Source of the DNA: Escherichia phage vB_EcoM_JS09 | Length of the DNA stretch: 64,000 nucleotides | Strand: one strand, 5' to 3' | Sequence record: NC_024124.2 | Part shown: piece after piece, positions 25,367 through 28,192 of the stretch | Layout: each line of letters starts with the position of its first letter | How positions within the stretch are numbered: the stretch's first letter is position 1 | The notes under the pieces: model-generated | The model's database searches: none | Seen by the model: only the letters and a program-made list of their open reading frames with translations | Told to the model about the DNA's origin: nothing | Program-made: the position numbers and the translations under genes

Positions 25367-26497
25367 ATGGCTTTTACAGTTGATATAACTCCTAAAACAC
25401 CTACTGGAGTTATAGATGAGACTAAGCAGTTTACTGCTACTCCCAGTGGTGAAACTGGAGGTGGAACTATTACATATGCTTGGACTGTAGATGATGTTCC
25501 ACAAGATGGAGCTGAAGCAACTTTTAGTTATGTACTAAAAGGACCTGCCGGTCAAAAGACTATTAAAGTAGTTGCAACAAATACAGTTCCAGAAGCTGAA
25601 GCTGAAACAGCAGAAGCTTCTACAACTATCACAGTTCAAAACAAGACACAAACGACTACCTTAGCTGTAACTCCCAATAGTCCTTCAGCCGGAGTAATTG
25701 GAACCCCAGTTCAATTTACTGCTGCCTTAGCTTCTCAACCGGTTGGAGCGTCTGCTACGTATCAGTGGTATGTAGATGATTCACAGGTTGGTGGAGAAAC
25801 TAACTCTACATTTAGCTATACTCCGACTACAAGTGGAGTAAAAAGAATTAAATGTGTAGCCCAAGTAACCGCGACAGATTATGATGCAAAGGAAGTTACT
25901 TCGAATGAAGTATCATTAACGGTTAATAAGAAGACAATGAATCCACAGATTACATTGACTCCTCCTTCTATTAATGTTCAACAAGATGCTTCGGCTACAT
26001 TTACTGCTAATGTTACTGGCGCACCTGCCGCAGCACAAATTACTTACTCGTGGAAGAAAGATTCTTCTCCTGTAGAAGGGTCAACTAATGTATATACTGT
26101 TGATACTTCATCTATTGGAAGTCAAACTATTGAAGTTACTGCAACTATTACTGCAACTGATTACGATAGCAAAACTATTACAGCAGAAGGTCAAGTTCAG
26201 GTAACTGATAAAGTTGCTCCAGAACCAGAAGGTGAACTACCTTATGTTCATCCTCTTCCACATCGTACTTCAGCTTACATCTGGTGCGGATGGTGGGTTA
26301 TGGATGAAATCCAAAAAATGGCCGAAGAAGGTAAAGATTGGAAAACTGAAGATCCAGATAGTAAGTACTACTTGCATCGTTACACACTTCAGAAGATGAT
26401 GAAAGACTATCCAGAAGTTGATGTTCAAGAATCACGTAATGGATACATCATCCATAAAACTGCTTTGGAAACTGGTATCATCTATACATATCCATAA
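25367..26497 (+). CDS. hoc: highly immunogenic outer capsid protein (Ig-like domains)
   Basis: 376 aa (T4 Hoc length); repeated Thr/Val-rich Ig-like segments. Confidence 0.9.
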   Translation: MAFTVDITPKTPTGVIDETKQFTATPSGETGGGTITYAWTVDDVPQDGAEATFSYVLKGPAGQKTIKVVATNTVPEAEAETAEASTTITVQNKTQTTTLAVTPNSPSAGVIGTPVQFTAALASQPVGASATYQWYVDDSQVGGETNSTFSYTPTTSGVKRIKCVAQVTATDYDAKEVTSNEVSLTVNKKTMNPQITLTPPSINVQQDASATFTANVTGAPAAAQITYSWKKDSSPVEGSTNVYTVDTSSIGSQTIEVTATITATDYDSKTITAEGQVQVTDKVAPEPEGELPYVHPLPHRTSAYIWCGWWVMDEIQKMAEEGKDWKTEDPDSKYYLHRYTLQKMMKDYPEVDVQESRNGYIIHKTALETGIIYTYP

Positions 26498-27041: not shown

Positions 27042-27069
27042 TATGCTTTACATTTTTTGATGGTATAAT
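27041..27069 (+). promoter_or_regulatory. candidate MotA-dependent middle promoter
   Basis: ATATGCTTTA 27041-27050, TGnTATAAT 27061-27069, 13-nt spacing; upstream of rnlB. Confidence 0.5.
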
Positions 27070-27160: not shown

Positions 27161-27880
27161 ATGTTTAAGAAATACAGCAGTCTTGAAAACCACTACAACT
27201 CTAAGTTTATTGAAAAACTCTACACTAATGGTTTGACTACCGGTGTTTGGGTAGCACGTGAGAAAATCCATGGGACCAACTTCTCGTTAATAATTGAACG
27301 TGACAACGTCACATGCGCCAAGCGCACAGGCCCTATTCTTCCAGCAGAAGATTTTTATGGTTATGAAATCGTACTCAAGAAGTATGATAAAGCTATTAAA
27401 GCCGTTCAGGAATTCATGTACACAGCTCGAGCCGTATCATATCAAGTATTCGGTGAATTCGCTGGTGGTGGAATCCAGAAAGGTGTTGACTACGGTGAAA
27501 AAGATTTTTACGTGTTCGATATCCTTATCAATACAGAAAGTGGTGATAATACATATTTGACCGATTACGAAATGCAAGATTTCTGTAATGAATTCGGTTT
27601 TAAAATGGCACCAATGCTCGGTCGTGGAACATTCGATGCTCTTATCACGATTCCAAACGACCTTGATTCTGTCTTAGCCGCTTATAATGCTACTGCGTCA
27701 GAAGATCTTGTAGAAGCAAATAATTGTGTATTTGACGCTAATGTTATTGGTGATAATACTGCCGAAGGTTATGTTCTGAAGCCTTGTTTCCCTAAATGGC
27801 TGCCAAACGGTACTCGTGTAGCTATTAAGTGCAAGAACTCTAAATTCAGTGAAAAGAAAAAGTCTGATAAAGCCTATTAA
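27161..27880 (+). pseudogene. rnlB: RNA ligase 2 (Rnl2), N-terminal fragment ended by frameshift
   Basis: 239 aa; near-identical to T4 Rnl2 N-terminus with KIHGTN motif; frame ends ...[10 protein letters not shown] where T4 continues PIKAK. Confidence 0.85.
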
Positions 27881-28160
27881 AACTCAGGTTCCATTAACCG
27901 AAATTGACAAAAACTTGCTTGATGTTCTAGCTTGTTATGTTACATTAAATCGTGTTAATAATGTGATTTCTAAGATTGGGACTGTAACGCCAAAAGATTT
28001 TGGCAAAGTGATGGGATTGACTGTTCAAGATATTCTGGAAGAAACTTCTCGTGAAGGTATTGTATTAACAACATCTGATAATCCGAATCTTGTTAAGAAA
28101 GAATTAGTCCGAATGGTGCAAGATGTTCTGCGTCCTGCATGGATTGAATTAGTATCATAA
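27849..28160 (+). pseudogene. rnlB: RNA ligase 2 (Rnl2), C-terminal fragment in the +1 frame
   Basis: Frame continues [16 protein letters not shown]...RPAWIELVS, matching T4 Rnl2 C-terminus; no ATG, ORF track starts on GTG. Confidence 0.8.
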
Positions 28161-28162
28161 CG

Positions 28163-28192
28163 AAAAAAGGGACCTTACGGTCCCTTTTTTTT
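28163..28192. terminator. bidirectional rho-independent terminator
   Basis: AAAAAA-GGGACC-TTAC-GGTCCC-TTTTTTTT between convergent rnlB and gene 24. Confidence 0.8.

Follow-up and report, generated by a model that had tools for sequence, protein, structure and literature searches.

RNA ligase 2 of phage T4 (Rnl2, the product of rnlB or gene 24.1; PDB 2HVQ, 2HVR, and 2HVS) distributes its chemistry over two domains: the N-terminal domain (residues 1 to 243; residues 1 to 249 in the construct) performs steps 1 and 3, and the C-terminal domain serves step 2 and the binding of the nick (PMC3149579, PMC3884662). Lysine 35 is the residue that becomes adenylylated, and the catalytic roles of the residues in the Rnl2 motifs have been described (PMC3149579). 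On its own, the N-terminal domain adenylylates itself and joins AppRNA or AppDNA to a 3′-OH, and it is defective in step 2 and in overall nick sealing (PMC3149579, PMC3884662). The truncated enzyme, Rnl2(1-249) or "Rnl2 truncated" (PDB 1S68), is a laboratory construct. What Rnl2 does for the phage during infection is unknown (PMC3884662).

JS09 is an RB69-like Mosigvirus, and in its deposited genome the corresponding gene lies on the plus strand in two reading frames. In the window, i.e., the whole stretch of 64,000 nucleotides that was analyzed, hoc, 24.3, and 24.2 are found upstream of the gene, and gene 24 follows it on the opposite strand. The neighbors are the same in RB69, NBG1, SA79RD, and T4, so that the genome position is conserved. 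This locus, together with the homology to 2HVQ described below, bears out the original prediction that the gene is rnlB, the ortholog of T4 RNA ligase 2. The features of the locus, of which the promoter-like site and the terminator hairpin were read from the sequence, are as follows.

27045-27048 and 27064-27069, plus strand: putative MotA-type T4 middle promoter-like site, GCTT and TATAAT separated by 15 nt
27161-27880, plus strand: N-terminal open reading frame of rnlB, 239 aa, with the stop codon TAA at 27878-27880
27263-27280, plus strand: motif I, KIHGTN (K35), aligned at the T4 position
27827-27847, plus strand: motif V, KCKNSKF (residues 223 to 229; K223/K225 correspond to T4 K225/K227), upstream of the lesion and kept
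27869-27872, plus strand: the lesion, AAAG versus the AAG of relatives (Lys codon, ...SDK-PIK...), from the alignment with RB69, NBG1, and T4
27873-28160, plus strand: C-terminal part of rnlB in the +1 frame, 95 native residues (PIK...ELVS), with the stop codon at 28158-28160
28163-28192, both strands: putative bidirectional intrinsic-terminator hairpin between rnlB and gene 24, A6-GGGACC-TTAC-GGTCCC-T8

At the position homologous to the promoter-like site, SA79RD is annotated with a T4 middle promoter, GCTT(N13-15)TATAAT. Terminators are annotated on both strands at the equivalent place in NBG1 and SA79RD; a simple terminator scan did not pick up the rnlB/gene 24 hairpin (28163-28192), and the lengths of its A and T runs differ among most relatives. 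Upstream, hoc (25367-26497) is polymorphic in length in the Mosigviruses, encoding 376 aa in JS09 and 283, 378, 471, or 472 aa in relatives. Hoc of JK42 is called as two products of 344 and 33 aa and may be another split gene.

The N-terminal piece of rnlB aligns with residues 1 to 239 of T4 Rnl2 (PDB 2HVQ; E = 5.5e-118) and matches 1S68 (E = 3.8e-117), and the C-terminal piece aligns with positions 235 to 335 of the 2HVQ chain, whose numbering runs one residue ahead of that of T4 (E = 1.6e-46). Homology with E values below 1e-40 on either side of a single indel is not a chance pattern. Pfam family PF09414 (RNA_ligase) is matched by the N-terminal piece over profile positions 3 to 169 of 171 (84.3 bits; cutoff, 27) and PF18043 (T4_Rnl2_C) by the C-terminal piece over profile positions 4 to 81 of 82 (84.7 bits). 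The break thus separates two full Pfam domains and is located precisely in the linker between them. As had been predicted, motif I, KIHGTN, is kept in the N-terminal fragment, with K35 aligned to its counterpart in T4, and motif V is retained too. The other motifs are likewise aligned to their T4 positions, namely Ia (RTG at 55; R55), III (FGEF at 97 to 100; E99), IIIa (FYVFD at 116 to 120; F119), and IV (EGYVLK at 202 to 207). JS09 shares with T4 Rnl2 and RB69 RnlB the gene, the locus, motifs I to V, and both Pfam domains. Unlike these, it has the C-terminal domain out of frame, and no single polypeptide carries both domains. In this family, step 2 and nick sealing require both domains in one polypeptide; in JS09 as written, PF18043 lies out of frame and after the stop codon. 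As it stands in the deposited sequence, rnlB of JS09 is a disrupted member of the Rnl2 family, a pseudogene or a split gene.

Both pieces can be found in the public record. The 239-aa product is identical to GenBank AIA80219.1 (YP_009037590.1, "RNA ligase"), and an exact-protein lookup with it returned a match to JS09 alone. GenBank already gives the second piece as a 49-aa CDS, again named "RNA ligase" (AIA80220.1), which starts at an internal methionine of the C-terminal domain. With both products annotated, the split of JS09 rnlB is already known from public annotation, and it is not a new mechanism.

According to the original prediction, a +1 frameshift splits the gene into fragments of 239 and about 100 aa, and this description holds: besides the 239-aa open reading frame, the +1 frame is open from a GTG at 27849 to the stop codon at 28158-28160 (a mechanical open reading frame of 103 aa) and ends in RPAWIELVS. 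The predicted end of the first frame at 27878-27880 and the predicted resumption of the native sequence in the +1 frame from 27873 were both correct. RB69, NBG1, and T4 read GAT AAG CCT ATT AAA (D-K-P-I-K), where the JS09 window reads GATAAAGCCTATTAAA; GAT AAG CCT of the relatives has become GATAAAGCCT. The alignment with these three phages places the extra nucleotide, which had been expected near 27866-27875, at 27869-27872, where it can be read as an added A or, with the same result, as a base added within AA[A/G]. Deletion of one A restores a protein of 332 aa that differs from RB69 RnlB (AAP76090.1) at four positions, all of them in the N-terminal domain, and is 76% identical to T4 Rnl2. 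No secondary decay is seen downstream of the break, where the 95 residues encoded 3′ of the lesion are identical to those of RB69. The exact repaired 332-aa protein is present on seven Logan contigs, so that this protein is known from an intact allele as well. At the equivalent of 27866-27875, the Logan SRR5831603 locus reads GATAAACCT, with an AAA lysine codon, in contrast to T4 and every other relative, which have GATAAGCCT. AAAG of JS09 resembles a merge of the AAA and AAG alleles, and it is a matter of speculation that the consensus of a mixed population could yield such a sequence.

The N-terminal piece as read comprises 237 native residues, up to the equivalent of T4 K239, followed by Ala-Tyr and the stop codon. 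Like Rnl2(1-249), it is an N-terminal adenylyltransferase domain alone. In contrast to the construct, it is 10 residues shorter, ends 4 residues short of the domain limit (1 to 243), carries two foreign residues (AY), and arose naturally or by error and not in the laboratory. The original prediction had stated that T4 Rnl2(1-249) retains adenylyltransferase activity and the ligation of pre-adenylated substrates, in agreement with the literature (PMC3149579, PMC3884662), and it had rightly pointed out that the fragment is shorter than this construct. By analogy, the JS09 fragment could still be capable of self-adenylylation and of joining pre-adenylylated ends; from the same literature it is predicted to be null for step 2, nick binding, and nick sealing. 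Neither GTG 27849 nor the internal ATG of the 49-aa CDS is preceded by a Shine-Dalgarno sequence, which suggests that the C-terminal domain is probably not made.

A 70-nt megablast query across the lesion, run against 50,697 phage records, matched 175 records, and among the matches listed the relatives span 69 nt and not 70, with TU01 (MZ560701.1) as the sole exception. Twenty further loci were obtained through exact matches to the neighbors gp24 and gp24.2 in NCBI, ENA metagenome assemblies, and Logan; the neighbor Hoc as an exact-match query gave no match. The JS09 insertion is absent from all 20, and 23 of the 24 loci compared in all are without it. Furthermore, rnlB is intact in these 20 loci except for two from ERZ1478606, which have a separate loss of one A at codon 4. 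An exact 26-mer containing the insertion was not present in IMG/VR, JGI metagenomes, or GTDB genomes. Only the JS09 record and TU01, its apparent derivative, have the insertion, which occurs in no independent relative; the comparison with rnlB of close relatives that had been proposed with the original prediction has thereby been made.

TU01 as an independent confirmation of the extra base was considered and rejected. Positions 32001-96000 of TU01 (MZ560701.1) and positions 1-64000 of the window differ by 1,043 substitutions and 136 Ns, with 0 indels over the 64 kb and an offset of exactly 32,000; JS09 and SA79RD, which show similar divergence, are separated by 18 indel events over the same 64 kb. 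Even at the terminator homopolymers (28163-28190) TU01 equals JS09, though these are variable among most relatives. The record is labelled "partial genome," its taxonomy line names JS09 as the species (Mosigvirus JS09), and the TU01 paper describes a CLC assembly with mapping-type parameters (PMC9117343). In the simplest reading, TU01 looks like a reference-guided, substitution-only consensus on JS09. A sequence that is gap-free against JS09 over 64 kb is not independent, and one built on JS09 would copy the extra base; the split rnlB annotation of TU01 was probably inherited from JS09. A truncation was also suspected in pseT (1704-2603), since TU01 annotates 777 nt for this gene, and was ruled out: the window contains the full 299-aa open reading frame with a GTG start. 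TU01 annotates pseT from an ATG inside this frame, so that the two records differ here in annotation and not by a lesion.

Other Mosigviruses carry disrupted alleles of rnlB. Products of 113, 116, and 162 aa are encoded on Logan/ENA contigs of 142 to 169 kb, and their lesions were deduced from the protein sequences. The 113-aa product occurs on three contigs (up to 168,887 bp); its tail, VVIIRI, matches an alternative frame and fits a 58-nt deletion between CAGAAAG direct repeats at 27476 and 27534. The junction of this deletion was absent from phage records, in which all matches were wild type in two pieces. The 116-aa product ends after ...GEKDF (equivalent to about 27509), where a nonsense change would fall, and the 162-aa product leaves the native frame by a frameshift after GRG (equivalent to about 27630). 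In k87_210367 of ERZ1478606, an ENA metagenome-assembled Mosigvirus, AAGAAATAC has become AAGAATAC by loss of one A at codon 4 (equivalent to 27170-27172); gene calling yields a protein of 308 aa there. Several of these lesions are not typical sequencing errors. Like the lesion of JS09, they are independent inactivating lesions of the same gene in close relatives; unlike it, they differ in position and type (58-nt deletion, stop, frameshifts, loss of one base at codon 4), and none has the JS09 insertion. Independent lesions of this kind are consistent with rnlB being dispensable under some conditions.

Variation of other types is found in the same gene. Six of the loci compared encode a 335-aa variant with 9 extra bases (three codons) in the N-terminal domain at 27423-27432, an in-frame length polymorphism that circulates in part of the genus. 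On a 1.7-kb Logan contig, a 332-aa Rnl2 combines an N-terminal domain identical to that of JS09 with a T4-type C-terminal domain, joined at the conserved linker, and a 247-aa Rnl2 on an 80-kb Logan contig is also mosaic. Such mosaics reflect either recombination within rnlB or chimeric assembly.

Our leading explanation, which we consider to have an even chance of being right, is a recent and real one-base insertion, private to JS09, that deprives rnlB of its function as a ligase that seals nicks; on this explanation, we infer that the base is truly present in the phage DNA. Located at the Lys-Pro junction of the inter-domain linker of Rnl2, the insertion would abolish nick sealing by the rnlB product. 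Translation from the normal start would yield Rnl2(1-237) plus Ala-Tyr, a complete adenylyltransferase domain, and the C-terminal domain would still be encoded, yet out of frame and devoid of its own ribosome-binding site. The phage would tolerate the loss because rnlB is accessory, as the independent lesions in related assemblies suggest.

The strongest rival, to which we assign somewhat less than an even chance, is that the extra base entered the deposited JS09 sequence as an error of base calling, assembly, or consensus building. The phage would then have an intact rnlB of 332 aa, and the error would have been copied into TU01 via the scaffold. In keeping with an error, the allele stands alone in a comparison with about 175 Mosigvirus records (among the matches listed), 23 other loci, and three large DNA collections, and this want of independent confirmation in any collection counts against a real mutation. 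So does the rarity of real loss, with Rnl2 intact and near full length, i.e., present at at least 80% coverage in one place, in 1,386 of the 1,394 matching T4-like phage records. The only sharer, TU01, is the gap-free copy described above, down to the variable terminator homopolymers. An error is also favored by the seven contigs with the exact repaired protein and by the undecayed C-terminal domain, whose 100% amino acid identity to RB69 is the outcome expected from a sequencing error as well. The lesion site is a short A run within an A-rich stretch. Furthermore, the JS09 RefSeq protein accessions cited in the notes of SA79RD fall into two number blocks, which may weakly hint at a revision of the record.

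However, several observations speak against an error. When 176 stop-to-stop open reading frames of the 64 kb were set against SA79RD, rnlB alone was broken, and its insertion is the sole frame-breaking indel within a CDS among the 18 indel events. With a single broken gene in the window, the assembly is not riddled with indel errors, and errors are sparse at most. The change from AA to AAA does not lie within a long homopolymer, where platform errors concentrate, and the sole lesion hit an accessory, dispensable gene although structural genes fill most of the window. Moreover, genuine rnlB lesions occur in relatives. Given that all other genes in the window are whole and that decay is absent from the C-terminal coding part, the lesion is either recent or artefactual. 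The base rates of real mutation and of error are, by rough estimate, comparable.

It is unlikely, in our judgment, that the insertion is real with the wider consequence that JS09 makes only the adenylyltransferase domain of Rnl2, as a natural "Rnl2 truncated," and that, taken with the other lesions, the loss of nick sealing is repeatedly tolerated or even favored on some hosts. If this were true, the repeated loss of Rnl2 would provide a genetic handle on its unknown biological role.

We hold recoding, i.e., the production of full-length Rnl2 by +1 ribosomal frameshifting or by transcriptional slippage in the A-rich tract, to be highly improbable. Re-pairing of tRNA-Lys from AAA (27869-27871) to AAG (27870-27872), followed by CCT, would give the exact wild-type ...SDKPIK..., and the overlap at 27849-27880 is open in both frames. 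However, the arrangement is not conserved; the gene is uninterrupted at this site in all independent relatives, which means that selection has not shaped it for recoding. In the A site stands GCC (Ala), neither a stop nor a rare codon, and the TAT-TAA pair is unable to re-pair at +1. No Shine-Dalgarno-like stimulator or GGAGG-like element is present in 27850-27868, and the downstream RNA folds no better than shuffled sequences (z = −1.22). Transcriptional slippage takes about 8 to 9 or more A or T in a run, and prfB and dnaX-type signals serve as the yardstick. Near the site, the longest A run is 5 (GAAAAGAAAAAG, 27851-27862), which is too short for efficient slippage. Hence, neither the conservation nor the slippery site with stimulator of a prfB-like +1 frameshift was found, nor a homopolymer suited to slippage, which is expected at background level at most. 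It is just as hard to believe that JS09 translates each domain on its own and that the two polypeptides then come together in trans as an active ligase: the break does lie exactly in the linker with a complete Pfam domain in each piece, but Shine-Dalgarno sequences are missing at both candidate starts, the 49-aa GenBank CDS would miss half of the C-terminal domain, the split is not conserved in relatives, and PMC3149579 and PMC3884662 offer no evidence for trans-complementation of Rnl2 domains.

In sum, we retain the recent, private one-base insertion as our leading explanation for the interrupted rnlB of JS09. The split comes either from an ordinary mutation that kills the gene in JS09 alone or from a sequencing error, and as such it matters little. 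If it is an error, it is a matter of curation, with a false split gene in the JS09 record that was apparently inherited by at least one later record (TU01) through reference-guided assembly. If the base is real, JS09 would be a naturally occurring Mosigvirus with a defective rnlB that nevertheless grows well on ETEC and APEC hosts, and comparing it with relatives whose rnlB is intact could be a way to examine what Rnl2 does in infection.
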